Below the pieces are notes generated by a model. It was given only the letters and a program-made list of their open reading frames with translations. It was not told the DNA's origin and did not search any database. Below, one piece after another: positions 1,984 through 31,033 of a DNA stretch of 32,000 nt (position 1 is the first letter of the stretch; every line of letters begins with the position of its first letter). The position numbers and the translations under genes are program-made. The stretch is from positions 240,001-272,000 of the forward strand of contig JAUYHT010000002.1 of assembly GCA_030688545.1 (NCBI GenBank). The letters run 5' to 3'. Origin of the DNA: Candidatus Iainarchaeum sp. (GTDB lineage: Archaea; Iainarchaeota; Iainarchaeia; Iainarchaeales; VGJJ01).

Positions 1984-2008
1984 ACCACCATCCTACTCCC
2001 AAAATTCA

Positions 2009-2018
2009 CTTAAATAGG
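2009..2018 (-). promoter_or_regulatory. TATA-like box for proS (CCTATTTAAG on the minus strand)
   Basis: AT-rich box centred about 30 nt upstream of the proS ATG (1983). The same TTAAATAGG word sits upstream of the 10996 gene. Confidence 0.4.
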
Positions 2019-2275
2019 GGCCGGTTTCTCGCGGGCAATGGTACCTGGTTTTTAACTTTTTTTACCCAGGGTTACAATCTGACTTGGGGAAAAAAACGAG
2101 GCCATTCCAACTCGGTTATGTGAATTACGCGGATGCATGAATAGAAAAATCTCCTTTTTCATCCCACTCAAACCTATATTCCCCCTCACTAATTTACATC
2201 TTCATCCATTTGGAAATGATTAGCCGCCCATTCACCCAATCCTTTTTAATCAATCCTCCACCTCTTCCTGGGAGA

Positions 2276-2348
2276 GGGGGAGTAGTATAGCCTGGTAGTA
2301 TGCCACCATGGGGTGGTGGTGACCCCGGTTCAAATCCGGGCTTCCCCA
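2276..2348 (+). tRNA. tRNA-Pro (anticodon GGG)
   Basis: Manual cloverleaf: acceptor GGGGGAG/CTTCCCC, anticodon stem CCACC/GGTGG, loop ATGGGGT (G37), T-arm CCCGG-TTCAAAT-CCGGG, discriminator A. It is 73 nt with no encoded CCA and no intron. Confidence 0.88.
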
Positions 2349-2455
2349 TACCCACATTCCAATTAGGGCGTTCGAAATTAGGGAAGGTTCACCGAGGCCT
2401 CCCGGCTGACTGGTATCCGTCACCCTTTGAGTCAAGGGCTAATATTTTACTGTTT

Positions 2456-3112
2456 TCACACGAATGCATCTTCAAATGTGTTAATTTGAAAGTCTGCTTT
2501 TGTCAATGGGTCAGAACCGTGGTTTCCAATTAGAACTCCCACGGTTAGTATACCTGCGGATTTGGCTGATTCAACTCCTCGACGTGTATCTTCAAACGCA
2601 ATACAGTCTGATGCCGATAATTTTATTTTTTCTAAACTATGAGTATATGATTCAGGGTTTGGTTTATCCTCCAGATAATCCTCGCGTGCAACAATAAAGT
2701 CAAAAGAAGAACGAATTCCGACGTTTTTCAATACCCGCTCAACAATTAGACGTGTACTCCCTGAGCAGATGTTGCAGCTAACCTTTTTTGATTTATAATA
2801 ATCCAAAATATCTAAAACACCAGGAAGAGGAGTGTTGATTCGTTGAATAAGCTGGTAATAAAGGTTTTTGTGTTCTTTTAGCACCATATTTGCATCAACC
2901 TGTATTCCTCTGGATTTGAAAATATCTCCATAAAAACGCAAATCAGGAATTTGGAAATAATCCATTTTTTCTTCAGGGGTCAAACTAATGGCATACTTTG
3001 CCAGGATAGTTTTACTTGCATCAAGGCCTACTTGCTCGGTGTCTACTAAAATACCGTCGAAATCAAAAATGGCGGCTTTTATCTTTTCAGGAAATCGCTT
3101 ATCCAAAGCCAT
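2456..3112 (-). CDS. HAD-superfamily hydrolase (beta-phosphoglucomutase-like subfamily)
   Basis: 218-aa ORF. HAD motif I is FDFDGILVDTE. The C-terminal region AFEDTRRGVESAKSAGI resembles motif IV. The DNA is low-GC. Confidence 0.78.
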   Translation of the reverse strand: MALDKRFPEKIKAAIFDFDGILVDTEQVGLDASKTILAKYAISLTPEEKMDYFQIPDLRFYGDIFKSRGIQVDANMVLKEHKNLYYQLIQRINTPLPGVLDILDYYKSKKVSCNICSGSTRLIVERVLKNVGIRSSFDFIVAREDYLEDKPNPESYTHSLEKIKLSASDCIAFEDTRRGVESAKSAGILTVGVLIGNHGSDPLTKADFQINTFEDAFV

Positions 3113-3114
3113 AT

Positions 3115-3756
3115 TTAGACCTTTTTAGATTGTTTGCTCTTAAGGTAAGATTTGATTATGGATGTTTTACTTTCGTTAATAATATACATGCAATGACGCT
3201 CTTCACGCCAGATTTTTATTGAGCTAAAATCTACATCTTGAGTGGCAGGATTCACACCCAGGGGAATTTTTAGGGTGCCAATATCTTCAAAACCAATTGA
3301 AAAATACAACCTTTTTGCGCGCTCATTCCAATGAGCAAATGTCAATTCGATTGCATCCGCTTTGGAGTCTTGTGCATATCCCATAAGAAACTGCATACCT
3401 AAACGACCTATACCTTTCCCTTGGAAAGCATCTGCGATACATATTCCAAGAATGGGTATTTGTAAGCTTTTACCATTGAAGGAATATTTTTGTGTGATCC
3501 TCCATAGGGCCAAATGACCAATCGGGGTGCCAGAAGGAGAGAATATCAAATAGGACGAATCCTTTCCTGCTTCGTGGCCTGCAATGGCCATTCGGTAATC
3601 TTCTATTTGTTTATCGGTATCCCACCGGTAAGGGGCAAATAGTTCTTTGGAATTTGCGCTAAGAGTATCCGCAAATGCTTTAAGATATTTTTCGTCACCT
3701 CGCTCAAGAGGTCGAACTTCCAGCGATCCAATACAGGAGGGTAAAGTAGACCTCAT
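3115..3756 (-). CDS. GNAT-family N-acetyltransferase
   Basis: 213-aa ORF with motif A QGKGIGRLGMQFLMGYA. It stops 2 nt before the HAD start, so the two are likely co-transcribed. The DNA is low-GC. Confidence 0.72.
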   Translation of the reverse strand: MRSTLPSCIGSLEVRPLERGDEKYLKAFADTLSANSKELFAPYRWDTDKQIEDYRMAIAGHEAGKDSSYLIFSPSGTPIGHLALWRITQKYSFNGKSLQIPILGICIADAFQGKGIGRLGMQFLMGYAQDSKADAIELTFAHWNERAKRLYFSIGFEDIGTLKIPLGVNPATQDVDFSSIKIWREERHCMYIINESKTSIIKSYLKSKQSKKV

Positions 3757-3872
3757 AGATAGAACTAAACTGCCCCATCACCATCTAAATACTTATCTAG
3801 AATGTGATTAATTGACCAAATTTTTCCTATTGGAAAGGTTTACCTCATCCCCGGCCTATAAAGTCCGAACGA

Positions 3873-4634
3873 TCAGGGCACCCTGATCGTGTAGATGCGC
3901 ATTTCCTGCTCGATGACGGTTTTCCCGTCTTTGGTGTGCTGACGCAGGAATTCCATTATCTCTTTCTGTTTAGCTACGGCCTCCTCGCGCCGCATGAAGG
4001 TATTGGAAAATACTTCCAATGCCCATTCTGGGGATTTGAATTGAAAGGGAAGCACGAGTTTGCGCACGGAGACCTTCCACCCCTGTTCCTCGCAGAACGC
4101 GGGAAACGTTTGATCGAACGCTTTGGTTTTCAACACATTATCCGGCTTGGTGAACCCTTCCAAATGGGGCAAGTCCCTCTCACCTGATGTAAACCCTATC
4201 ACGATGGGACATCCTTTTTTGGTTATGCGCACCAACTCCTTGACTATTTTTTCCCATCGAGATTTGGCATAATGAATCACCCACACGCAATACGTGGCAT
4301 CCGACACTTCATCGTCCAATGGCAATCCCACGGAAGGGGATTTAACAACCTGCACTTTATCGCGTAAACCATGCTCACGGACCAATTTTTGGATGGCCGT
4401 CACCGACCAATCGCTCTCCCGAACACAGGTGATAGAGGCCGCTAGTTTAGAAAAAGGCACAACCAACCGACCCGGGTCATAGCCCGCATCGATCACATGC
4501 TTTCCAACGATATTGGCCTCTTCAAGGATGGCGGGCAATTCATGTGTGTCGCGCCGAATGCTGGCCTTCACCATCTCGTGCCAGTAGTCCCAGTAAACGG
4601 GATCTTTAGGGGTGTTGGGAGGGAATGATGCCAT
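3873..4634 (-). CDS. Class-I SAM-dependent methyltransferase-like protein
   Basis: 253-aa ORF. It has a degenerate motif I (HVIDAGYDPG) and a later VRITKKGCPIVIGF strand typical of the Rossmann methyltransferase fold. A TATA-like CCTTAAAAAAAGG lies at 4655-4667. A 10-bp-stem palindrome (ACGATCAGGG-CA-CCCTGATCGT) lies at the 3' end. Confidence 0.55.
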   Translation of the reverse strand: MASFPPNTPKDPVYWDYWHEMVKASIRRDTHELPAILEEANIVGKHVIDAGYDPGRLVVPFSKLAASITCVRESDWSVTAIQKLVREHGLRDKVQVVKSPSVGLPLDDEVSDATYCVWVIHYAKSRWEKIVKELVRITKKGCPIVIGFTSGERDLPHLEGFTKPDNVLKTKAFDQTFPAFCEEQGWKVSVRKLVLPFQFKSPEWALEVFSNTFMRREEAVAKQKEIMEFLRQHTKDGKTVIEQEMRIYTIRVP

Positions 4635-7387: not shown

Positions 7388-7626
7388 AACACAAATTCAA
7401 ACGAATGCTGACCTGGATCTGGCGATGGGGATTATTCGTCCTCGCCTTTCTCATCGTGGTTTTCGCGGTCGTATCCCTGGACACATTCGTCATCGAGCAG
7501 CGCCTCTACTTCCTCCGCGCGGGGGCTTGGGAAGAACTGCTCCTCATCACGGCGTTAGGGTTGCTCATCGCGTATGTCCTGAAACGCCTGCTCGTCCTCC
7601 AATGGAAATGGGGAGTGGGCAAATGA
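7384..7626 (+). CDS. Small membrane protein (two predicted TM helices)
   Basis: 80-aa ORF. Its ATG overlaps the lig stop (ATGA at 7384-7387). Its stop overlaps the next ATG (ATGA at 7623-7626). It has two hydrophobic stretches. Confidence 0.55.
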   Translation: MKHKFKRMLTWIWRWGLFVLAFLIVVFAVVSLDTFVIEQRLYFLRAGAWEELLLITALGLLIAYVLKRLLVLQWKWGVGK

Positions 7627-8597
7627 ACGTGTTCAAGTTGCTGGTCATGGCCGTGGGAGCGGTGGCCCTGCTGTACATTATTCTCCTCCTCTTTGCCCCT
7701 TTGTTTTCAACCCCTCCCAATATTGCACATGCGGCGGAAGGTCTGTTGCTCACCGCCCAAACGGATTTGGGAAAAAGCTATTCCACTACTCTTGATGTGC
7801 GGGCGGAGCAATCATTGGATGCCCGATCCCTCGATGAACCCTCCCGGAGTGTGGCTTTTGCTTGCTCGGGCATAGACTGTTGCGATGATCCCCGGGACTG
7901 CCCCCTCCCCCTTACAGTTAATGCCCAACGCATCCTCTTCCACCAGGATATCCGCACCACCTTTTCGGCGCGTTGTGAGGAAACAGCTGGCATCCACGCG
8001 TGCACGGTGTACGTGGGAAAAAGGCCCGCGCAACTGGAGTGGCGCGACTTAGTGTTGCCGGAAGTTAATAATGGGGATGATCTCCCTTACGTGGCGCAGG
8101 CCACTATCTTTAACACGGGAGAAATAATTTTGAGAGATGTCACCGTATTATTGCGCGTGTATGAATCCCAAGTATTCGCTGGAAACGAGGAAAAGATCAT
8201 CATCCACACGCAGGAACAAATTATCCCAGCACTCGATCCTTCTTCGGGATATCCACTGGCGTTTACGGAAACTATTCTCCCAGGGAATTATACGATCGAC
8301 CTATTTGCCTCCGCCCAGGAAGGGGGATTCGATCGCGTGCGGAAGGACGTGCACATCACGGGAGAGACTATTTCCCTTTGCCAACCTATTCTTGAAAACC
8401 GGGGCCTTGGTACTTGGGATGGGTTTACCGAACTCTGCCGGGCCCAGAGGGATTGCACGGGGTGTACGTTTGCCTTCGAATGTCGGGAGGCCTGGGAGCG
8501 CACCGCGCCACTGTCAGGGGGTGGGTCTTATGATGCGTCCCGGGGGGAGCCAGGGTTCACTTACGCCCTGTACGAGCCGGTAGAGGGGAGTTGTTAA
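7623..8597 (+). CDS. Membrane-anchored or secreted Cys-rich protein with a CARDB-like beta-sandwich segment
   Basis: I chose the internal ATG at 7623 (MNVFKLLVMAVGAVALLYIILLLF hydrophobic anchor). The 7425 start would overlap the previous ORF out of frame. The middle region ATIFNTGEIILRDVTVLL...LPGNYTIDLFA resembles CARDB. It has several Cys residues, mostly in two clusters (CSGIDCCDDPRDC and CRAQRDCTGCTFAFEC). Confidence 0.6.
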   Translation: MNVFKLLVMAVGAVALLYIILLLFAPLFSTPPNIAHAAEGLLLTAQTDLGKSYSTTLDVRAEQSLDARSLDEPSRSVAFACSGIDCCDDPRDCPLPLTVNAQRILFHQDIRTTFSARCEETAGIHACTVYVGKRPAQLEWRDLVLPEVNNGDDLPYVAQATIFNTGEIILRDVTVLLRVYESQVFAGNEEKIIIHTQEQIIPALDPSSGYPLAFTETILPGNYTIDLFASAQEGGFDRVRKDVHITGETISLCQPILENRGLGTWDGFTELCRAQRDCTGCTFAFECREAWERTAPLSGGGSYDASRGEPGFTYALYEPVEGSC

Positions 8598-9240
8598 TGG
8601 CCCAATCCATGAAATCGCGAATAATATAGGGGTGGCCCACTTCCGGGTGGAAGGATAGCCCTAAAATGCGTTTTTGGGGATGCACGAAGCCCGAAATGGG
8701 GCAGGAGGGGCTGGAAAAGCATAGGAATGCCCCTTTGAATAAAATTGATGAGGATGGGGGAGAAGAAGAGGCGGACAGTGGGATAAAGGGGGCTGGGGAG
8801 GTGGATGAGACGCTGGGGAGGGTGACTTCCTTGGCATGCAGGGAATACACCCGAATGGAAGAAGGCACGTTTTCAAGGAAAGGAAAATTGCCCTTTTTAC
8901 GAATGAGATTCATTCCTATCAAAGGGACTTTTCGTGCTTTCACGCGGGCCCCAAAAAGGCGGGCGAGGAACTGCTGTCCGGCACAGATACCCACCATGGG
9001 GATGTCCACATTCCGTAGCCAGGCTAATCGTTTGACGTGCGCCTCATACGTGAAATCCTGCACTGGGCAACCGGAGAAGATGATGGCCCGCGCCGGCCGC
9101 ACATGCTTCTTTCCTAATTTGGAAATGGGAACGACCGTTGAAGGAAACTGGAGCGCCCGCTGGAGGGGCCAAGCAAATTCTCTCATGGTGAGGAGGGAAG
9201 ACATTCCAGAATTGACGACGAGGATATGATCCATGCTCAT
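8557..9240 (-). CDS. Class-I glutamine amidotransferase (GATase1) domain protein with an S/P-rich insertion
   Basis: 227-aa ORF. The nucleophile elbow is GICAGQQFL and the His-x-Glu motif is LSFHPEV, so the triad appears intact. It has an unusual insert, SVSSTSPAPFIPLSASSSPPSSS. Its ATG overlaps the upstream stop (ATGA at 9237-9240). Confidence 0.68.
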   Translation of the reverse strand: MSMDHILVVNSGMSSLLTMREFAWPLQRALQFPSTVVPISKLGKKHVRPARAIIFSGCPVQDFTYEAHVKRLAWLRNVDIPMVGICAGQQFLARLFGARVKARKVPLIGMNLIRKKGNFPFLENVPSSIRVYSLHAKEVTLPSVSSTSPAPFIPLSASSSPPSSSILFKGAFLCFSSPSCPISGFVHPQKRILGLSFHPEVGHPYIIRDFMDWAINNSPLPARTGRK

Positions 9241-10007
9241 GTGGATTTTCTCCTTTTTCCATTTTTCATTTTTCCTTTTTTATTTTTTCTATTTTTGTTT
9301 TTGGGAAAGGGGATAATCGGTTTGTGAATCGCTTGCAATTCCCGGATGTGCCGGGTGCCCTGCAGCCCTATCCATTCATCCTCGAAGCGCCGCACGCGGA
9401 GACGCTCATGGAAGAATGGCGCATCGAGGACGAAGCTCTCGAATTCCCCCCCTTCGCCTATGGGGGAAACACCATGGGAGGATTCCAATGAAAATAATAC
9501 GGGAGAATGATTCTCATCAATGGTTTTCCCCAACCATTCTTTCTCCAGTCCCCGCGCGGCCACCGCGACTAACATGATTTCAAAGCCCCGCGTATGCAAC
9601 TCATGCCAATGCGCCCGAGGAGATGATTGCCAGAGGGGATTGAAACACCATAACCCCATATCCCAACAGATACGCTGGATGCGGGAGGCCTGGTAAGTCG
9701 AATACACCGCACCCGTAACCACTCCTTCAATTCCACAAGTCTCTTTCAATGCCCCGAGCACGCGTTTCAGATCCACATACTCCCGCGTTTTCTTACCGGA
9801 GGTGGGCACAAAAACTAAAGGGAGTCGCATGCTCGCCGCCTGAGTCTTCGTCCACGTGATATTAGGCACATGAAAGAGGAATGATTCCTTGTTCTCGGGC
9901 GCCATGGCCACCAAGCAAACTATCTCATGCCCCGCCTGCTTTGCAATATGCAGGGCGAGCGTGGAATCCTTCCCCCCCGAGAACAAAGAAGCGAGGCGCA
10001 TGGTCAT
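9237..10007 (-). CDS. dph6: Dph6/MJ0570-type PP-loop ATP pyrophosphatase (diphthine-ammonia ligase family)
   Basis: 256-aa ORF. The PP-loop is SGGKDS near the N-terminus. It also has NPLW and GEGGEFESFV motifs typical of the ATP_bind_4/diphthamide synthase family, and a Lys-rich C-terminal tail. Confidence 0.78.
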   Translation of the reverse strand: MTMRLASLFSGGKDSTLALHIAKQAGHEIVCLVAMAPENKESFLFHVPNITWTKTQAASMRLPLVFVPTSGKKTREYVDLKRVLGALKETCGIEGVVTGAVYSTYQASRIQRICWDMGLWCFNPLWQSSPRAHWHELHTRGFEIMLVAVAARGLEKEWLGKTIDENHSPVLFSLESSHGVSPIGEGGEFESFVLDAPFFHERLRVRRFEDEWIGLQGTRHIRELQAIHKPIIPFPKNKNRKNKKGKMKNGKRRKST

Positions 10008-10996
10008 TCCTTCCTGCTTCGGTTCAAGGCGATTTGGACGACTTTTCCCCGTCGGCGTCGTTTCTGTTTCTGCATGCGGCGATCGAGTTCGTCAAATAGA
10101 TCATCGTAATCGACCTTCTTGTCGTAGGAAGAAGTCCCGATAACGGCGGCAGTAAACGATATTGGTTTCCACCGGCGCTGGGCCAATAACCCTTTGACAA
10201 ACTCGAGTCCCATATTTTTACTCAATTTTTTCCACCAGTGTTGGTCTTGTTTTCCCTTCCTCCAACGTTTACTCAATTCCATGACTTCATCCCGAAATTC
10301 TGGGGAGTCAGTATCCCGAAGGTAATTTTCCTGCAACATTTTTATCAATGTGAATGCCGTCGCGGGATCTTTACGGAAAAATAGATAATATTCATCTCCA
10401 CCCATCCTACCAGCATAACCATTTCCTATTGCCGCCACCTGGGATAACATTTCAGTGAATCGGGATAATGTAACGTTTCCCACTTTTTGTCCGAAACGCT
10501 TGTTGATCCTTCCGAAACGATCGAGGTCGATGACGATTGCTGAAAAAGGCTGGTGATTAGGCTCGCGAAGCGCCTCATACACCCTCGCTTTGAACATGGA
10601 ATCATTCACGACGAGTGGGGTTTGGTGGTGATGAGTCAGTGATTTGGCAGTAATCTCCCGCATCACTCGCGCTAGCCGTCGGATCCCACGGTAGGTTCCA
10701 ATTACCCGATTTCTCTCCTCGGGAGAAAGGGTTTTCAAATGGCGCGTGAATCTGGGGTCATGGAAAAGGGAGGAGGTCCTTCGCTCAAATTGGGTGACCA
10801 GATTCAGGGAAGAGACGAGTTTTTGGGGATCCGCAATGAGCTCCCTCCCCTGTCTCGCTTGTTGATGATATTCATAGTAAAGCCCCAGGCTGCGGAATGC
10901 GTCCGTCCTGATTCGACTGGATGGTGTCAGTATATTAATTAGCCAATCCACCTTACGCTCCTTCTTTCGACGGGGGCGGAAAGGGAGAACGGGCAT
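10004..10996 (-). CDS. GGDEF-domain (diguanylate-cyclase-like) protein with an unknown N-terminal domain
   Basis: 330-aa ORF. IVIDLDRFGRINKRFGQKVGNVTL...GRMGGDEYYLFF aligns without gaps to the canonical GGDEF palm. The C-terminal ISFTAAVIG...DELDRRMQKQK matches the last strand and helix. Confidence 0.7.
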   Translation of the reverse strand: MPVLPFRPRRKKERKVDWLINILTPSSRIRTDAFRSLGLYYEYHQQARQGRELIADPQKLVSSLNLVTQFERRTSSLFHDPRFTRHLKTLSPEERNRVIGTYRGIRRLARVMREITAKSLTHHHQTPLVVNDSMFKARVYEALREPNHQPFSAIVIDLDRFGRINKRFGQKVGNVTLSRFTEMLSQVAAIGNGYAGRMGGDEYYLFFRKDPATAFTLIKMLQENYLRDTDSPEFRDEVMELSKRWRKGKQDQHWWKKLSKNMGLEFVKGLLAQRRWKPISFTAAVIGTSSYDKKVDYDDLFDELDRRMQKQKRRRRGKVVQIALNRSRKE

Positions 10997-11015: not shown

Positions 11016-11026
11016 CCTATTTAACC
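11016..11026 (-). promoter_or_regulatory. TATA-like box for the GGDEF operon (GGTTAAATAGG on the minus strand)
   Basis: Centred about 25 nt upstream of the ATG at 10996. Confidence 0.45.
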
Positions 11027-11175: not shown

Positions 11176-12090
11176 ATGCAACCACATATAGTAGGGTTGG
11201 GGGGAAATGCCCTCATTCGAATGCACCAATTAGGGGATTTCACGCAGCAATTGAAAAACGTGCAACGCACGTGCCGCGCGCTCGCCACCTATGCGGGGAA
11301 AGGAAACCCATTGGTTATTACTCATGGGAATGGGCCACAAGTGGGAAATCTGGAACTCCAGATGCGCGCCGCTTCCCCAAACGTTCCTCAGATGCCATTG
11401 GACGTGGAAGGGGCGATGACGCAAGGGCAGATTGGGCACCTCCTCTTCCTGGGGTTGAAAAAATGGAAACCCACATTGGAAATAAGCATGATCCTGACTC
11501 ACGTGGAAGTGGATCCCAAGGATTATGCATTCAAAATCCCCACCAAACCCATCGGACCCTGGTATTCCCATTCCACCCATCTCACGCGCCACCGGATTCC
11601 CTTTCTCCACGATCCCAAAAAAGGGTTCAGACGGTTAGTGGCCTCTCCCAACCCTCAAAAAATAATTGAATTGGACGCCATCCGCACATTGTTGAAACAA
11701 GGCCACGTGGTCATTGCCGGGGGAGGCGGGGGCATCCCCGTGTTTAGAAACAAAATGGGTTACCGGGGCGCGGAAGGCGTCATCGATAAGGATCTGGCAT
11801 CCTCCCTGCTCGCCACCCGACTGAAGGCGCATCAGCTCACTATTCTTACGGATGAATCCCACGTATACACCCAATTCGCCACTCGCCATCCACGCCCCAT
11901 TCTCCATATGAATAGACGCGAGGCCCGCGCCCATCTGAGGAAAGGGGAATTCGGGGAAGGGAGCATGCGACCTAAAATAGAGGCCGGACTCCGATTCCTT
12001 CAAAAAGGGGGAAGGGTTGTGCACATCGGGCATACCGACGACGCGAAACAGGTGATGATGGGTGAAAAAGGGACGCGCATCTATCCATGA
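11176..12090 (+). CDS. arcC: Carbamate kinase
   Basis: 304-aa ORF with GLGGNAL at the N-terminus, the THGNGPQVG motif and IAGGGGGIPV. Confidence 0.9.
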   Translation: MQPHIVGLGGNALIRMHQLGDFTQQLKNVQRTCRALATYAGKGNPLVITHGNGPQVGNLELQMRAASPNVPQMPLDVEGAMTQGQIGHLLFLGLKKWKPTLEISMILTHVEVDPKDYAFKIPTKPIGPWYSHSTHLTRHRIPFLHDPKKGFRRLVASPNPQKIIELDAIRTLLKQGHVVIAGGGGGIPVFRNKMGYRGAEGVIDKDLASSLLATRLKAHQLTILTDESHVYTQFATRHPRPILHMNRREARAHLRKGEFGEGSMRPKIEAGLRFLQKGGRVVHIGHTDDAKQVMMGEKGTRIYP

Positions 12091-13063
12091 GATAGATTCC
12101 ATTCTAAGCTCCAGGCCCTTCCGCCAATTGAAAGGAAAGGATTTCCTGAACACACATGATATTACCTCCCATCAAATGGACGACATCCATTCCCTCGCGG
12201 GCCTCCTCAAAAGAATGCACCAGCACCACGAGGGATTACCTCCCCTACTCCACCAGAAAGCCGTGGCCTTGCTCTTCGAGAAGCCCTCCACCCGCACGCG
12301 CACGTCGTTCGATGTGGGCATCCATCTGCTGGGTGGACACAGTTTTTTTATCGACAAAACCACCACCCAAATGTCCCGGGGAGAAGACTGGAAGGATACC
12401 ACTCTCACGTTAACCCAATACACGGATGCCCTAATGGCCCGGGTGTTCGAACATACGACGCTGGAACAGATGGCCCGCTTCTCTTCCAAACCCGTGATCA
12501 ACGGTCTCACGAATGAAAACCACCCCTGCCAAATCCTTTCGGATTTATTCACGATGCGGGAACATTACGGGACGCTCGACGGGTTAACAGTCATGTATGC
12601 TGGGGTCTCCGATAATGTTACGGATTCCCTCCTCGTGGGATGCGCGATGATGGGAATGGACATCATCGTGGCCTCCCCACCCCCTTTCAAGGTGTCGCCG
12701 AAATACCTCGCGATCGCCAGGAAATTATCCAAGAAGACCGGAAGCGCCATTACCGTATTTCCCCGCATTCCTGAATTAAAAATATTGAAACAAGTGAACG
12801 TGGTCTACACCGATGAATGGGAAAGCATGCACATGCACCTCGACAAGAAGAAGATGCTACCCCTTCTGCGCCCCTTCCAGGTGAATGAAAAATTGATGGG
12901 AAAATGCGCCCGGGGCGCCAAGATGATGCACTGCCTCCCCGCCATCAAAGGGGAGGAAGTATCCCCAACTATCATGTATGGGAAATATTCTCTCGTGTGG
13001 GAACAGGCCCAAAACAGGATGTGGGCGCAAATGGCTTTGTTGAGTGGGTTGCTGCGTGATTAG
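12062..13063 (+). CDS. argF: Ornithine carbamoyltransferase-family transcarbamylase
   Basis: 333-aa ORF with STRTRTSF (carbamoyl-P site), HPCQ and HCLP motifs. The usual SMG ornithine loop reads SMH. It overlaps arcC by 29 nt, so the start is uncertain. Confidence 0.85.
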   Translation: MKKGRASIHEIDSILSSRPFRQLKGKDFLNTHDITSHQMDDIHSLAGLLKRMHQHHEGLPPLLHQKAVALLFEKPSTRTRTSFDVGIHLLGGHSFFIDKTTTQMSRGEDWKDTTLTLTQYTDALMARVFEHTTLEQMARFSSKPVINGLTNENHPCQILSDLFTMREHYGTLDGLTVMYAGVSDNVTDSLLVGCAMMGMDIIVASPPPFKVSPKYLAIARKLSKKTGSAITVFPRIPELKILKQVNVVYTDEWESMHMHLDKKKMLPLLRPFQVNEKLMGKCARGAKMMHCLPAIKGEEVSPTIMYGKYSLVWEQAQNRMWAQMALLSGLLRD

Positions 13064-16390: not shown

Positions 16391-18346
16391 ATGAATCGGG
16401 TTTTAAACTTCAAAGAATCCAAGGAATGCATGCCGGCCCCCGGAACGTTACCCACCTCTTCCACGCATCCCGTGACGTGCGGGCTGGAAGTCCACCAGCA
16501 ATTGGACACGCATAAACTCTTTTCTCGTTGCCCCAGCACCCTGCGCGAGGACGCTCCAGATTTCACCTTTTTCAGGAAGTTGCACGCGGTTGCTTCCGAG
16601 CTGGGAGAGTATGATTTGGCCGCGCTTGAAGCGGCGCGGAAGAGACAGACCTATACCTATCAAGGGCACCACGAGAACACCAGTTTGGTGGAAACGGATG
16701 AAGAACCCCCCGCCCCCATGAATGCGGAAGCCCTATGTATTGCCCTGGAGGTGGCGCTCCTCTGCCAAGCGAAGACCGTGGACAAAATAACGGTGATGAG
16801 GAAAACCGTATTGGACGGGAGCAACACTTCGGGATTCCAACGCACCGCCCTGGTATCCATGGGGGGACAACTCACGCTCACGAATGATATGCCCATCCGG
16901 GTCATGGGAATTGCCCTGGAAGAGGATTCCGCCCGCCCCATCGGACAGAAAGGGGAAGACGGGGTGTACCGCCTGGATCGGCTCGGGTTTCCCCTTATTG
17001 AACTCGCGACGTATCCGGATATCCATTCTCCCGAACAAGCCAAGGAAACCGCTCTCAAGATTGGGGAGGTGCTCCGCATCACTGGAAAGATGAAACGAGG
17101 CCTGGGAACCATTCGGCAGGATTTGAACATCTCCATCCCTGGAGGAGCGCGGGTGGAAATCAAGGGGGTGCAGGAGGTGGGGATGATCGACGAATACGTG
17201 CGGCGGGAGATGCAACGACAACAGACCCTGCTCGCCCTGAAGGACACATTAACAAAGGAAGGATTGACCAAAGATAAGGTGAACAGCCAGGGCGCCACCG
17301 ACCTTACTCTTATTTTTTCGAACACCTCCAGCCCGCTCGTGCGGAAAGCCCTGGAGAAACAGCATCATCTATGGGGGGTGCGGTTGCCCCAAATGAAGGG
17401 AAAAATGGGATTGGAAATACAACCTGGCCGACGAGTGGGAGGCGAAGTTTCATCCTATATGAAGAATAAAACCGGGTTGCAGGGCATCCTTCATGGGGAT
17501 GAGTTGCCAGCGCATGGCGTCACGGAGGAAGAAGTGAAGCAGGTTAGGGAGGCATTGCATGTTCAGGAAAAGGATAGCTTTGCTTTGGTGATGGGCCCTG
17601 AAACCAAGGCGCGATTCGCCATCGACACCATCAAGCACCGGGTGTCATTCCTCCTGGAAGGCATTCCTGAGGAAACACGGAACGCCCTGGAGGGAGGTAA
17701 CTCGGAATATTCCCGCCCCCTTCCTGGAGCGGCACGCATGTACCCGGAGACGGACGCGCAGGATATTTTCATCACCCCTTCCCTCATTGGGGATTTGAAA
17801 AACACCTTACCCGCATGGGGAGAGGATAGAAAAAAACAGTATATGCAAATGGGATTGAGCGAAAAGCACGCGGAAGAGATGAAACTGGACAACAAGGCCC
17901 GCTTTTTCGAACGCATGGTTGGAAAAGGGTATGCTCCCACCCTCACGGCCACGCTATTATTGGACACTTTCAACACCATCCGCCGAGAAAATCCCCAAGT
18001 ATCCCGACTCACGGAAGAGCAACTGGAATCCCTATTGGAAGCGGAAAAGGGAAAACAGGTGCTGCGGGACAACTTCCCCTCTATCCTACGTGAATGGGCG
18101 ATTAATCCTTCCGCCCCGCTGTCCGCTGTAATTGGGCGCCTGGGGAATGAGACAATGAAAGAGGATGAGGTAACGAAAGTCGTGAAACAGATCGTGGACA
18201 AGCACGCGCACTTGGTGCTCGCCAAAGGCATGCAAGCCCAGAAGCCCCTGATGGGGTTGTGCATGCAAGCCTTACGGGGTAAAGCCCAAGGATACTTCAT
18301 CGCTCAAGCATTGGAAAAAGAATTGCGCCAGCGAACAGGGAAATAG
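16391..18346 (+). CDS. gatE: Glutamyl-tRNA(Gln) amidotransferase subunit E
   Basis: 651-aa ORF. The N-terminal CGLEVHQQLDT motif, an AspRS-like insertion and a GatB/YqeY-like C-terminus give archaea-specific GatE architecture. The start could instead be the downstream ATG. Confidence 0.9.
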   Translation: MNRVLNFKESKECMPAPGTLPTSSTHPVTCGLEVHQQLDTHKLFSRCPSTLREDAPDFTFFRKLHAVASELGEYDLAALEAARKRQTYTYQGHHENTSLVETDEEPPAPMNAEALCIALEVALLCQAKTVDKITVMRKTVLDGSNTSGFQRTALVSMGGQLTLTNDMPIRVMGIALEEDSARPIGQKGEDGVYRLDRLGFPLIELATYPDIHSPEQAKETALKIGEVLRITGKMKRGLGTIRQDLNISIPGGARVEIKGVQEVGMIDEYVRREMQRQQTLLALKDTLTKEGLTKDKVNSQGATDLTLIFSNTSSPLVRKALEKQHHLWGVRLPQMKGKMGLEIQPGRRVGGEVSSYMKNKTGLQGILHGDELPAHGVTEEEVKQVREALHVQEKDSFALVMGPETKARFAIDTIKHRVSFLLEGIPEETRNALEGGNSEYSRPLPGAARMYPETDAQDIFITPSLIGDLKNTLPAWGEDRKKQYMQMGLSEKHAEEMKLDNKARFFERMVGKGYAPTLTATLLLDTFNTIRRENPQVSRLTEEQLESLLEAEKGKQVLRDNFPSILREWAINPSAPLSAVIGRLGNETMKEDEVTKVVKQIVDKHAHLVLAKGMQAQKPLMGLCMQALRGKAQGYFIAQALEKELRQRTGK

Positions 18347-28950: not shown

Positions 28951-29066
28951 TACACCGTTCCATCGGTGTGGTGCGGTATAGAAAGATTGTTTCAACACCC
29001 CTCAGCTGGCCATTTTCTTTGACTGGGCGCTACTTTCTTTTCTTAAAAGAAAGGAGTGCGTTCCCG

Positions 29067-29084
29067 AATCCTCCCCGGTGCATA
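29067..29084 (+). repeat. Second copy of the tRNA-Ile 3' end (AATCCTCCCCGGTGCATA, 18 of 18 identical to 28935-28952)
   Basis: Exact direct repeat. It is preceded by the hairpin CTTTCTTTT-ctt-AAAAGAAAG (29033-29053). Confidence 0.88.
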
Positions 29085-29147
29085 AACAGTTTCGGCTGCT
29101 TGGTGCGAGAGACTGCACCGAGGGGGTTAGGAGAACCCCCACAGACC

Positions 29148-29459
29148 CTACTTTTTTTTCTTCTTCCTCTCTGCATCTTTTTTACGATTAATAGACCGCA
29201 AATCACTTACACTTTGTCTCATGTCATTTGAACTAAAAATGCGTTTAATAGAAGAAGAATCGACATTGTATAACAGACTTAAACCCCTATTTGCACCGAC
29301 AAGATCTACAAACTCTTGGGCTTTCTCCCAACCAACAATTTTGATAAACCTCCAGGCAACTTCATGACCACCAACAATATTGCTTCCGCTAGAAAATTTG
29401 CCATAATCTATTGCTCGCTCAGTATACTCACGTGTTTCACTCCGTATCTTTGCGCTCAC
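29148..29459 (-). CDS. Hypothetical protein (GTG start, Lys-rich C-terminus)
   Basis: 103-aa ORF in low-GC DNA. There is no ATG start and no recognisable motif. It may be a gene remnant. Confidence 0.3.
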   Translation of the reverse strand: MSAKIRSETREYTERAIDYGKFSSGSNIVGGHEVAWRFIKIVGWEKAQEFVDLVGANRGLSLLYNVDSSSIKRIFSSNDMRQSVSDLRSINRKKDAERKKKKK

Positions 29460-29735
29460 TTGTTCACGTCTGGCATCCGCTTAAGGCCTTTCCCTACCCA
29501 AGTGATCCCCTGTACTTCCGGTGTAACCGCTTGTTTCCCGCGAACTGGGGCTGGATCGAAATCGGTGCCTCTTTCCCACCACGTCTGAGAAATCCAATTA
29601 TGTTTTTTTAAGATTACCTAGAACCCTCGGTGGACTAACAGATAACGAGTTCGAGTCCCCTAAACCCGTAGAAACTTCACCATTAAGTATCACCCTCTTC
29701 AGTATTTTTGGATTTGAGTAACAACGGAACTACTA

Positions 29736-29840
29736 TTATCACCACACCCCTAAAGAGAAAAAGTGGTGATAACTCGCCCCTGTAGCGGACCCACCTCACA
29801 AGTTATCACCACATTTTATAAAGTGTTTTGTGGTGATAAC
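29736..29840. promoter_or_regulatory. Two copies of the palindromic operator TTATCACCAC-N17-GTGGTGATAA, the second enclosing the Fic TATA box
   Basis: Half-sites lie at 29736-29745 and 29763-29772, and at 29803-29812 and 29830-29839. Both spacers are exactly 17 nt. The TATA-like TTTTATAAAG (29814-29823) sits in the second spacer, about 26 nt upstream of the ATG at 29845. Confidence 0.65.
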
Positions 29841-29844
29841 ATTT

Positions 29845-30789
29845 ATGGGCTCGATTATTTCCAGGAAAGTAAAAGGAAAGGAATATTTCTACATTGAACA
29901 AACCATCCGCATTGGGAAAAAATACCAGAAAATATCTGTTTATCTCGGAAACCAGAAACCCCTCACGAGCGAGCTGCCAATATTTAAAAAGAAGCTTCAA
30001 AAACGAGTCAACGCGTTTTACTCGAATGAATTATTGAAGCCTGAAACGAGCTATGTTAATATAGCTGCTGCCAAAAAGCTGGAAACGATCAAACAAGAAA
30101 CTAACACATTTATAGAAAATTTAAACAGCATTCAAAAAAAACATTGGATTGAAAGGGAGCGAGAAAGGTTCATCACCAATACAAATGCAATTGAAGGAAG
30201 CACACTCACGCTTAACGAAACACATCGCATACTTAAGTTAGATGAAAAAATAGGAACGGAGAGAGAACGTTTGGAAGTTTTGAATATGGAGAAATGCCTC
30301 CAACGTTATGACCAATACTTGAAAATCAACCAGGAATTAAACGAAAAAATGGTTCTGCAACTCCACTATATCTTATTGGATAAAATTCCTCATTACGATC
30401 AATACAAGGGGATCTGGAGACCGGTTGATGTTGAAATTCGAACAAGCCAATTTGAATTCCCCCATTTTCAATATGTTCCGGGAGAAATGAGGAAATTATT
30501 TGAGTGGTATTATGAAAAGAAAGATCGAATACACCCGCTGGAGTTGGCTGCCGTCTTTCATTGCCAATTTACAACCATTCACCCATTTGCAGATGGAAAT
30601 GGCAGAATCTCACGGCTACTTATGAACTACATCCTTCAATATGCACAGTTTCCTTTCACTAACATCCCTTATTCCAAACAAAAGGAATACTTTGAAACCC
30701 AAGAAAAAGGACATCACTCCCAATACCAACTATTCACTCAATTTCTTATTAAACAATTACAACAAAATTACCGAGAAATCAAAAAGTAG
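29845..30789 (+). CDS. Fic-domain protein (class II, intramolecular inhibitory motif)
   Basis: The Fic motif HPFADGNGRISR is canonical. The N-terminal TNAIEG matches the (S/T)xxxE(G/N) inhibitory helix. I chose the ATG at 29845 over the GTG at 29830. The DNA is low-GC; one line hand-counted at about 33%. Confidence 0.87.
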   Translation: MGSIISRKVKGKEYFYIEQTIRIGKKYQKISVYLGNQKPLTSELPIFKKKLQKRVNAFYSNELLKPETSYVNIAAAKKLETIKQETNTFIENLNSIQKKHWIERERERFITNTNAIEGSTLTLNETHRILKLDEKIGTERERLEVLNMEKCLQRYDQYLKINQELNEKMVLQLHYILLDKIPHYDQYKGIWRPVDVEIRTSQFEFPHFQYVPGEMRKLFEWYYEKKDRIHPLELAAVFHCQFTTIHPFADGNGRISRLLMNYILQYAQFPFTNIPYSKQKEYFETQEKGHHSQYQLFTQFLIKQLQQNYREIKK

Positions 30790-30882
30790 ATAAAACACGC
30801 GAGACGGATTTGAACTGGTTTCCTGAGGGCCTTCGGCGGGCTTTGGGCCGAGCTTTTTCGCAAAAAGGGCAGTATCGACTCA

Positions 30883-30893
30883 TCCCCGGTGCA
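30883..30893 (+). repeat. Degenerate third copy of the tRNA-Ile 3' end (TCCCCGGTGCA)
   Basis: An 11-nt exact match to 28940-28950. Extended, ATCGACTCATCCCCGGTGCA matches the tRNA T-arm/acceptor (TTCAAATCCTCCCCGGTGCA) at about 15 of 20 positions. Confidence 0.5.
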
Positions 30894-31033
30894 CTTTCAC
30901 TTTTAGAAATGACTTCCCCCGGCCTAAAGACTGATAGGGCCATGAAGAAAAATGTCAATTGGCTCGCGCAATTGTTCACCAAACAAGATGAGATGAACAG
31001 TCGCCCTATTTGAGGGGGTTATCTACCTTTTTG

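Follow-up and report, generated by a model that had tools for sequence, protein, structure and literature searches.

Dph6 and a linked class-I glutamine amidotransferase as a likely glutamine-dependent diphthamide synthetase, encoded behind a GGDEF-domain gene in Iainarchaeota

The stretch of DNA analysed here, referred to below as the window, comprises 32,000 nucleotides of Candidatus Iainarchaeum sp. (contig JAUYHT010000002.1, positions 240,001 to 272,000) and carries on its minus strand three tightly coupled genes. These are a GGDEF-domain gene (10004-10996, an open reading frame (ORF) of 330 amino acids identified by PF00990 and TIGR00254 scans), the gene dph6 for a diphthine--ammonia ligase of the PP-loop ATP pyrophosphatase type (9237-10007, a 256-amino-acid ORF matching TIGR03679 and PF01902), and a gene for a class-I (triad) glutamine amidotransferase (GATase) of a Dph6-linked family (8557-9240, a 227-amino-acid ORF matching PF00117). 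Based on comparison with related loci, it is likely that dph6 and the GATase gene encode a heteromeric glutamine-dependent diphthamide synthetase, which in Iainarchaeota would be co-transcribed with a sensor-less GGDEF cyclase. Because many archaea have a dedicated GATase encoded next to Dph6 or fused with it, glutamine is suggested to be the nitrogen donor of diphthamide synthesis here. The original prediction, made from the DNA letters alone, had proposed that the Dph6-like protein and the GATase form a two-subunit glutamine-dependent amidotransferase, and this proposal is now strongly supported by adjacency of the two genes across phyla, by natural fusions and by the placement of the GATase in a clade apart from subunit A of GMP synthase (GuaA-A).

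The GATase and GGDEF sequences evolve too fast for a word-seeded search, and each of the two window proteins retrieved only itself (for the GATase, from 5.8 billion proteins). The Iainarchaeota loci were reached via the neighbours of dph6, the product of which gave thousands of relatives in a word-seeded search. On the inspected contigs of seven Iainarchaeota Dph6 relatives (51-66% identity), the genes for GGDEF, Dph6 and GATase occur in this order in all seven, and at the four nearest relatives inspected outside the Iainarchaeota the GATase gene overlaps the dph6 stop by 4 nt in every case, so that a GATase gene lies directly downstream in 11 of 11 relatives. The four outside loci, among them one in a Bathyarchaeota genome and one in a metagenome-assembled genome (MAG) of 774 kb at chromosome level, have unrelated flanking genes and no GGDEF gene. 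The GTDB species genomes were scanned with an alignment of Iainarchaeota GATases only and the pattern GICAG[HQ], which missed the members outside this phylum, later found by look-ups anchored on Dph6; the scan yielded 13 strong orthologues, all immediately after dph6 and all at loci with a GGDEF gene. Including the window, the distinct Iainarchaeota loci number 16. The JGI metagenomes were scanned with the family alignment and the best 80 loci were kept: dph6 is directly upstream of the GATase gene in 67 loci, is fused to it in frame in 2, and in 5 precedes it in the same orientation at a distance of 0.8-1.5 kb, with unrelated genes in the interval; another 4 loci are uninformative owing to a contig end, and 2 have no dph6 in the 1.0-1.4 kb available. 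Within these best 80 loci, dph6 is upstream on the same strand in 74 of the 76 that are informative. In the five separated loci no consistent third gene was seen, the inserted genes being mutually unrelated (HTH and SIMPL genes, an HD-like protein and others). An exact 4-nt overlap is found in 80 of the 87 adjacent dph6-GATase pairs among all fetched loci, some of which are redundant copies of one region, and is therefore conserved rather than a product of chance. Taken across archaea, the survey of Dph6, GATase and GGDEF neighbourhoods shows a widespread Dph6-GATase pair, present in Iainarchaeota, Bathyarchaeota and further archaeal MAGs amid unrelated flanking genes, and a GGDEF association limited to Iainarchaeota. 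The adjacency seen in the window is not peculiar to this genome but is conserved across archaeal phyla.

The two proteins also occur as single polypeptides. When 1.84 billion cluster representatives (50% identity) were searched exhaustively with the window GATase, five full-length Dph6-linker-GATase fusions were recovered, 421-470 amino acids in length, in which the linkers differ and the PP-loop and triad motifs are intact; one of them, from Methanothrix sp., is annotated as diphthine--ammonia ligase. The sixth fusion, P0123 (419 amino acids), comes from an independent ENA assembly in which the gene is intact; in an NCBI MAG the gene is frameshifted. In that MAG (GCA_027000205.1, JALTOJ010000098.1; locus L056, 4960-4990), the fusion P0109 is truncated by a stop and a frameshift exactly at the catalytic GIC motif. 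This probably reflects an error of assembly, or else a pseudogene or variant at strain level, since the near-identical ENA contig encodes the intact P0123. The six fusions are diverged, and they consist of Dph6 and GATase only. The AlphaFold2 model of one fusion, P0151, has a mean pLDDT of 86.2 and a pTM of 0.86, with disorder in the linker only. Its N-terminal domain matches the structures of PH1257 and PF0828 at TMt 0.94-0.95, and its GATase domain matches GuaA-A-type structures at TMt 0.72-0.77, which shows the alpha/beta GATase fold for this fused relative. No Foldseek match to the P0151 model spans both domains.

The product of the middle gene is assigned as Dph6 at the equivalog level. 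It scores 254 bits against the TIGR03679 equivalog (cut-off 197.3) and 205 bits against PF01902 (cut-off 23.2), and the TIGR03679 cut-off is likewise passed by the examined partner Dph6 proteins of other lineages and by all six fusions, the whole set scoring 254-297 bits. The PP-loop motif S10-G-G-K-D-S15 (codons 9963-9980, minus strand) and the C-terminal motif G-E-G-G-E-F-E-S, of the EGGE[FY]E type, are both made up of invariant columns in the Dph6 alignment (A7). Sequence matches in the PDB are PH1257 (168 bits) and PF0828 (158 bits). The residues predicted to contact elongation factor 2 (EF-2) in PF0828 are S44, Y45, E78, Y103, Q104, A149, E183, E186 and E188 (PMC3541065); in the alignment of the window protein to PF0828 and PH1257, S44, E78, Y103, Q104, A149, E183, E186 and E188 are conserved, and Y45 is replaced conservatively by Phe. 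The Iainarchaeota Dph6 proteins additionally carry a Lys/Arg-rich C-terminal tail of 10-35 amino acids, which in the window is about 30 residues long and reads KNKNRKNKKGKMKNGKRRKST (9237-9330, with equivalents at loci L001-L008); this basic tail is absent from Dph6 of Bathyarchaeota, Thermococcales and others (222-227 amino acids). The GGDEF proteins are basic in a similar way at their N-termini. A protein search gave one dph6-type gene only from the 418-kb source contig, which belongs to a MAG of Candidatus Diapherotrites (Iainarchaeota, DPANN), no dph2, dph5 or EF-2 gene lies within the 32-kb window, and a scan of viral contigs for Dph6 found no match.

The window GATase scores 60 bits against PF00117 (cut-off 22.8) and is assigned to a distinct clade of triad GATases that has had no name of its own. 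Against the GMP synthase subunit A model NF001975 it reaches 65 bits (cut-off 198), and against TIGR00888 it reaches 62 bits (cut-off 172), in both cases over partial stretches only. Four other Iainarchaeota GATases score 75-92 bits on NF001975, and the Iainarchaeota proteins align to the GuaA-A model only from about residue 30-40 on. In the same scan, true GuaA-A proteins of Thermoplasmatales and Micrarchaeota reach 216-240 bits on NF001975 and are encoded directly after the GuaA-B gene; GuaA-B was seen only beside these true GuaA-A genes (loci L022 and L031). In a neighbour-joining tree of 94 GATase domains, 83 Dph6-linked members form one clade, and 7 GuaA-A and 4 other GATases fall outside it. 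The clade takes in fused members, members with dph6 nearby and two uncoupled ones, and the Iainarchaeota copies form a subclade within it. Identity with ordinary GuaA-A was rejected on the scores below the cut-off, the lack of a GuaA-B partner beside the gene and the separate clade.

The catalytic residues of the GATase are retained. The codon of the predicted nucleophile Cys86 (GICAGQQ) lies at 8983-8985 and the codons of His198-Pro199-Glu200 (FHPEV), which complete the triad, lie at 8641-8649, both on the minus strand and both in columns that are invariant in the two GATase alignments (A1 and A3); among the 14 family members of A3, Cys86, His198 and Glu200 do not vary. Features diagnostic of the family and common to the window protein and the members outside the Iainarchaeota are an N-terminal E-F-V-x-P, GICAG, an I-G pair, Y-x-L-H and FHPEV; the members inspected outside the Iainarchaeota are 178-181 amino acids long. 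The Ser/Pro-rich insert, noted together with these residues in the original prediction, is real: it comprises 27 amino acids (V144-G170; 8731-8811, minus strand) in a loop of the GATase, and it falls in a gap in all 13 other sequences of the alignment, so that it is peculiar to this genome. The GATases of loci L001 and L003 have a different insert, elsewhere in the protein. The window GATase is the most divergent member, with 30-41% identity to other Iainarchaeota copies.

The three genes appear to be read from one promoter. On the coding strand, ATGA is found at both junctions (10004-10007 and 9237-9240), and the ORF list bears out the 4-nt start/stop overlaps that had been described, with a qualification for the start of dph6. 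Since the orthologues begin with MRL and the NCBI product is 254 amino acids long, the true start of dph6 may be the second ATG (10001-9999), giving a protein of 254 amino acids; with this start, a 2-nt spacer after the GGDEF stop replaces the overlap, and the coupling is still tight. The overlap of dph6 with the GATase gene is unambiguous in the window. The single TATA-like box predicted upstream of the first gene, GGTTAAATAGG (11016-11026, minus strand), has its centre about 25 nt before the ATG of the GGDEF gene and is a degenerate copy of tttggaatttatatagg; at 10 of 12 orthologous Iainarchaeota loci this latter motif ends 20-22 nt ahead of the GGDEF start codon. The distance is in keeping with a TATA box from which an archaeal leaderless mRNA is made, and the operon transcript is therefore probably leaderless or near-leaderless. 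Outside the Iainarchaeota, dph6 has its own TATA-like box at a similar distance from its ATG, and the same holds for the Iainarchaeota genome GCA_016198125, in which dph6 is split from the GGDEF gene. Based on these separate boxes, an ancestral dph6-GATase pair appears to have been captured in Iainarchaeota behind the GGDEF promoter and to have lost its own.

Diphthamide amidation has been described as needing a source of NH3 (PMC3541065). In the mechanism proposed here, Dph6 would, by homology, adenylate the diphthine carboxylate on EF-2 and then amidate it, and the GATase would hydrolyse glutamine by means of Cys86, His198 and Glu200. Adjacency, fusion and the analogy with GuaA suggest that the two proteins form a complex in which glutamine-derived ammonia is handed to the Dph6 active site, the GATase serving Dph6 as GuaA subunit A serves GuaA-B. 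Several points weigh against a glutamine-dependent diphthamide synthetase. Yeast Dph6 is reported to use ammonium, and a glutaminase is therefore not obligatory. The Ser/Pro-rich insert is limited to this genome, and the activity of the window GATase is a predicted one. Three family members, at loci L065, L111 and L028, are uncoupled from dph6. At L028 (Pacearchaeota, JBNLCO010000007.1; 2931-4489), the family-type GATase gene overlaps the end of a gene for a DUF1846 (PF08903) N-terminal domain, an overlap seen at this locus only; dph6 has the same orientation here and terminates some 3.7 kb further upstream, beyond HTH, SIMPL and RecQ-like genes. The glutaminase may have acquired a new partner at this locus, or the genes may simply have been rearranged. 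The frequency of the pair is known only among Dph6 proteins at least 45% identical to that of the window. Finally, the neighbour-joining tree is midpoint rooted and carries no bootstrap values, and the P0151 model was built from a six-sequence alignment.

Other explanations of the pair fare less well. That the GATase is the ordinary GuaA-A of GMP synthase, with GuaA-B encoded elsewhere and the position beside dph6 incidental, would agree with GuaA subunit A being its best-scoring named family in NCBIfam and the PDB, and with the JGI annotation of one family member as GMP synthase. This reading is nevertheless extremely improbable: the scores of one third to one half of the cut-off, the unaligned 30-40 N-terminal residues, the true GuaA-A proteins that pass the cut-off beside GuaA-B, the separate clade, the near-universal linkage to dph6 and the six fusions to Dph6 all stand against it, and the fear that the GATase would turn out to be an ordinary GuaA-A can be set aside. 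The divergence of the window GATase, with its unique insert and no close homologue among the 5.8 billion proteins of the word-seeded search, could also be taken as the mark of a decaying relic, with Dph6 using free ammonium and the gene order kept by operon inertia. This we hold to be very unlikely, as the frame is intact over 227 amino acids, the triad, E-F-x-x-P and all family-invariant residues are kept, and the insert occupies a loop position near which the GATases of L001 and L003 tolerate extra residues. A further alternative keeps the glutamine-dependent amidotransferase and gives it a substrate other than diphthine on EF-2, as in a neofunctionalised DUF71 protein like the proposed B12-salvage subfamily; it is rated as quite unlikely in view of the partner Dph6 scores, all at 254-297 bits against an archaeal equivalog cut-off of 197, the conserved EF-2 interface with its one conservative change from Tyr to Phe, and the single dph6-type gene retrieved from the source contig.

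The place of the GGDEF gene in this arrangement must be weighed separately. The original prediction had further proposed a functional link of the cyclase with the amidotransferase through a nucleotide product, and past co-transcription this part finds no support. A single system of all three proteins, in which a cyclic dinucleotide regulates or is regulated by the amidotransferase, or in which the pair amidates the cyclase product, would account for the presence of the GGDEF gene beside the pair in all 16 distinct Iainarchaeota loci, for the 0-4 nt spacing or overlap between the GGDEF stop and the dph6 start in most of them, and for the single conserved promoter common to the trio. However, the whole neighbourhood is syntenic in Iainarchaeota, with carbamate kinase, ornithine carbamoyltransferase (OTCase) and MFS transporter genes on one side and a DNA ligase gene on the other, so that adjacency within this phylum is weak evidence. 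No GGDEF gene was found at the 80 metagenomic loci or at five non-Iainarchaeota loci, nor is the domain part of the fusion proteins; at GCA_016198125 (locus L007, 4620-5936), an opposite-strand gatD gene separates the GGDEF gene from dph6, which there has its own TATA box and still overlaps the GATase gene. Dph6 moreover retains its EF-2-contact residues and equivalog score. A single three-protein system is accordingly judged unlikely. The absence of the GGDEF gene from every pair outside the Iainarchaeota speaks against an obligatory link, and on this distribution it is a lineage-specific passenger of the operon, predicted to share with the likely diphthamide synthetase its co-expression only.

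The GGDEF protein itself scores 53.5 bits against PF00990 (cut-off 23.8) and 51.2 bits against TIGR00254 (cut-off 37.4). Its AlphaFold2 model (pLDDT 78.8) shows an all-helical part (residues 11-125), within which a long stalk helix spans residues 92-125, followed by a complete GGDEF fold (129-323) that includes a helical insert of about 40 amino acids (232-274) found in this genome only; in Foldseek the model matches the GGEEF domain of 6EIB, DosC and WspR at TMt of about 0.8. A profile of the Iainarchaeota orthologues matches whole diguanylate cyclase domains in the PDB, and the orthologues are labelled at NCBI as GGDEF-domain protein or diguanylate cyclase. The active-site motif is G199-G200-D201-E202-Y203 (GGDEY; 10388-10402, minus strand), preceded by R197. 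In 14 orthologues R197, G199, G200, E202, D157, D159 and N165 are invariant and the third motif position is Asp or Glu; the last residue of the motif, Tyr in the window protein, is Phe, Leu or Ile in the orthologues. We take D157 to be the metal-binding Asp (D327 of PleD), N165 to be N335 and R197 to be R366, in PleD numbering. By alignment to the PleD sequence, G162, Q170 and N174 of the window protein presumably occupy the positions of K332, H340 and D344, at which most orthologues are canonical. The product of the window protein is uncertain owing to these non-canonical residues; most likely, the protein makes cyclic di-GMP (c-di-GMP) or a related cyclic dinucleotide. The scanned ORFs of the window gave no match to EAL, HD-GYP or PilZ domains. 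According to a 2023 review, c-di-GMP is undetected in archaea and diguanylate cyclases are almost exclusively bacterial (PMC10249747), and no relevant literature on GGDEF proteins or GMP synthase of Diapherotrites was found among open-access papers and preprints. A bolder claim would have the GGDEF protein function in the archaeal cell as a synthase of c-di-GMP or, in view of N174 at the place of the guanine-binding Asp, of a mixed cyclic dinucleotide, with its signalling wired to the glutamine-dependent diphthamide synthetase of the same leaderless operon. This is unlikely; if true, Archaea would have their first second-messenger module of the c-di-GMP type, one that couples EF-2 modification in DPANN cells to the status of nitrogen or translation.

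Two observations touch on this protein from other sides. Among the matches of the GGDEF profile are PDB entries 8QJ3, 8QJ4 and 8QPF, each with an "ammonium transporter" chain of 644-661 amino acids and a C-terminal GGDEF domain, so that the fusion of such a domain to a protein that handles ammonium already has an example. At loci L002 (2283-3014), L005 (2316-3008) and L008 (2358-3053), a gene for a diadenylate cyclase (DAC, PF02457) lies just past that for OTCase, at a distance of about 2 kb from the GGDEF gene, so that two families of cyclic-dinucleotide synthases are neighbours in these Iainarchaeota loci; no DAC gene is present at the corresponding position of the window.

The neighbours of the operon are housekeeping genes. 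Beyond the GATase gene, the opposite strand encodes an ATP-dependent DNA ligase, a small membrane protein and a protein of 327-390 amino acids. The 3' end of the GATase gene overlaps that of the convergent ORF 7425-8597 by 41 nt (8557-8597), with no terminator-like T-run visible between the two; the orthologues of this ORF are 326-345 amino acids long and have at most a weak CARDB match. Divergent from the GGDEF gene are genes for carbamate kinase, OTCase, MFS transporters and GatE. The carbamate kinase gene (11176-12090, plus strand) and the OTCase gene (12062-13063, plus strand) overlap by 29 nt, also in orthologous loci, and their products catalyse two steps of the ammonia-releasing, ATP-yielding arginine deiminase pathway. 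The gatE gene (16391-18346) lies about 5.4 kb from the GGDEF gene and is the partner of gatD, the gene for the glutaminase subunit, of the asparaginase type, in archaeal Glu-tRNA(Gln) amidotransferase, so that genes of amidotransferases are met repeatedly in this neighbourhood. Two stretches of the window (2001-4000 and 29001-31000) have a low G+C content of 0.39-0.43, compared with about 0.50-0.55 elsewhere, and may have been acquired horizontally; the former holds HAD hydrolase, GNAT and methyltransferase genes and the latter a Fic/DOC-domain gene (29830-30789).

The ammonia source of Dph6 has been considered before. The 2012 study of DUF71 noted that the NH3 source may vary by organism and that physical clustering is generally not seen, and the suppliers it proposed were, for eukaryotes, two RidA domains and, for a few archaea, a fusion with AsnB/GAT-II (PMC3541065). 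A class-I GATase partner of Dph6 is mentioned neither there nor in a survey of the dph genes of archaea from 2018 (PMC6143161), nor in the other open-access papers and preprints searched. The statement that the arrangement is without precedent therefore holds for the class-I GATase partner, and it does not hold for the idea of an ammonia-supplying partner of Dph6, which dates from 2012. A dedicated class-I glutaminase whose gene adjoins dph6, or is fused with it, in DPANN, Bathyarchaeota and Methanothrix offers a testable answer to the question of the nitrogen donor for a large part of Archaea, and it would add a subunit to a conserved pathway of translation-factor modification. It would also put annotation right, as proteins of the family are now called "hypothetical" or "GMP synthase", and the latter label can lead to GMP synthesis being wrongly ascribed to reduced DPANN genomes. 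The GGDEF cyclase, conserved at all 16 of the Iainarchaeota loci, offers a good way into the question of c-di-GMP-type messengers in archaea.

With regard to known systems, the GGDEF protein resembles the bacterial sensor-less stalk diguanylate cyclases, such as the coiled-coil and GGDEF construct of DgcB and the WspR type, in its complete GGDEF fold and the long helix leading into the domain, and it shares with bacterial diguanylate cyclases the conserved R-x-G-G-[DE]-E, D-x-D-x-F and N(335) motifs. Unlike them, it has an archaeal (DPANN) host, no RxxD I-site, a GGDEY motif and a helical insert of 40 amino acids, and its gene stands in an operon with a translation-factor modification enzyme. 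The window Dph6 is like PH1257, PF0828 and yeast Dph6 (EC 6.3.1.14) in its equivalog score, PP-loop, EGGEFE motif and EF-2-interface residues. Unlike these characterised proteins, the Iainarchaeota Dph6 has a Lys-rich C-terminal tail, and, whereas characterised Dph6 proteins are described as ammonia ligases, the supplier proposed here is a class-I GATase, present as a coupled subunit or a C-terminal fusion.

The closest parallel to the pair is the two-subunit archaeal GMP synthase, in which a small stand-alone class-I triad GATase is likewise paired with an adenylating enzyme of the PP-loop type, the amidation taking place on an adenylated intermediate. In the true guaAB-guaAA loci (L022 and L031), the PP-loop gene comes first and the GATase gene second, overlapping, as in the window, and GuaA-A is the closest relative of the Dph6-linked GATase in both sequence and structure. 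The differences lie in the partner and its substrate, which would be Dph6 (DUF71/PF01902) and a protein-bound residue in place of GuaA-B and XMP, and in the GATase itself, which, unlike GuaA-A, fails the model cut-offs, does without the GuaA-A N-terminus and belongs to a clade of its own marked by E-F-V-x-P. The GATase is moreover C-terminal in the Dph6 fusions and N-terminal in bacterial GuaA. The predicted enzyme is thus of a known kind, an amidotransferase made up of a triad GATase and a PP-loop protein, and what is new is Dph6 as the synthetase partner.

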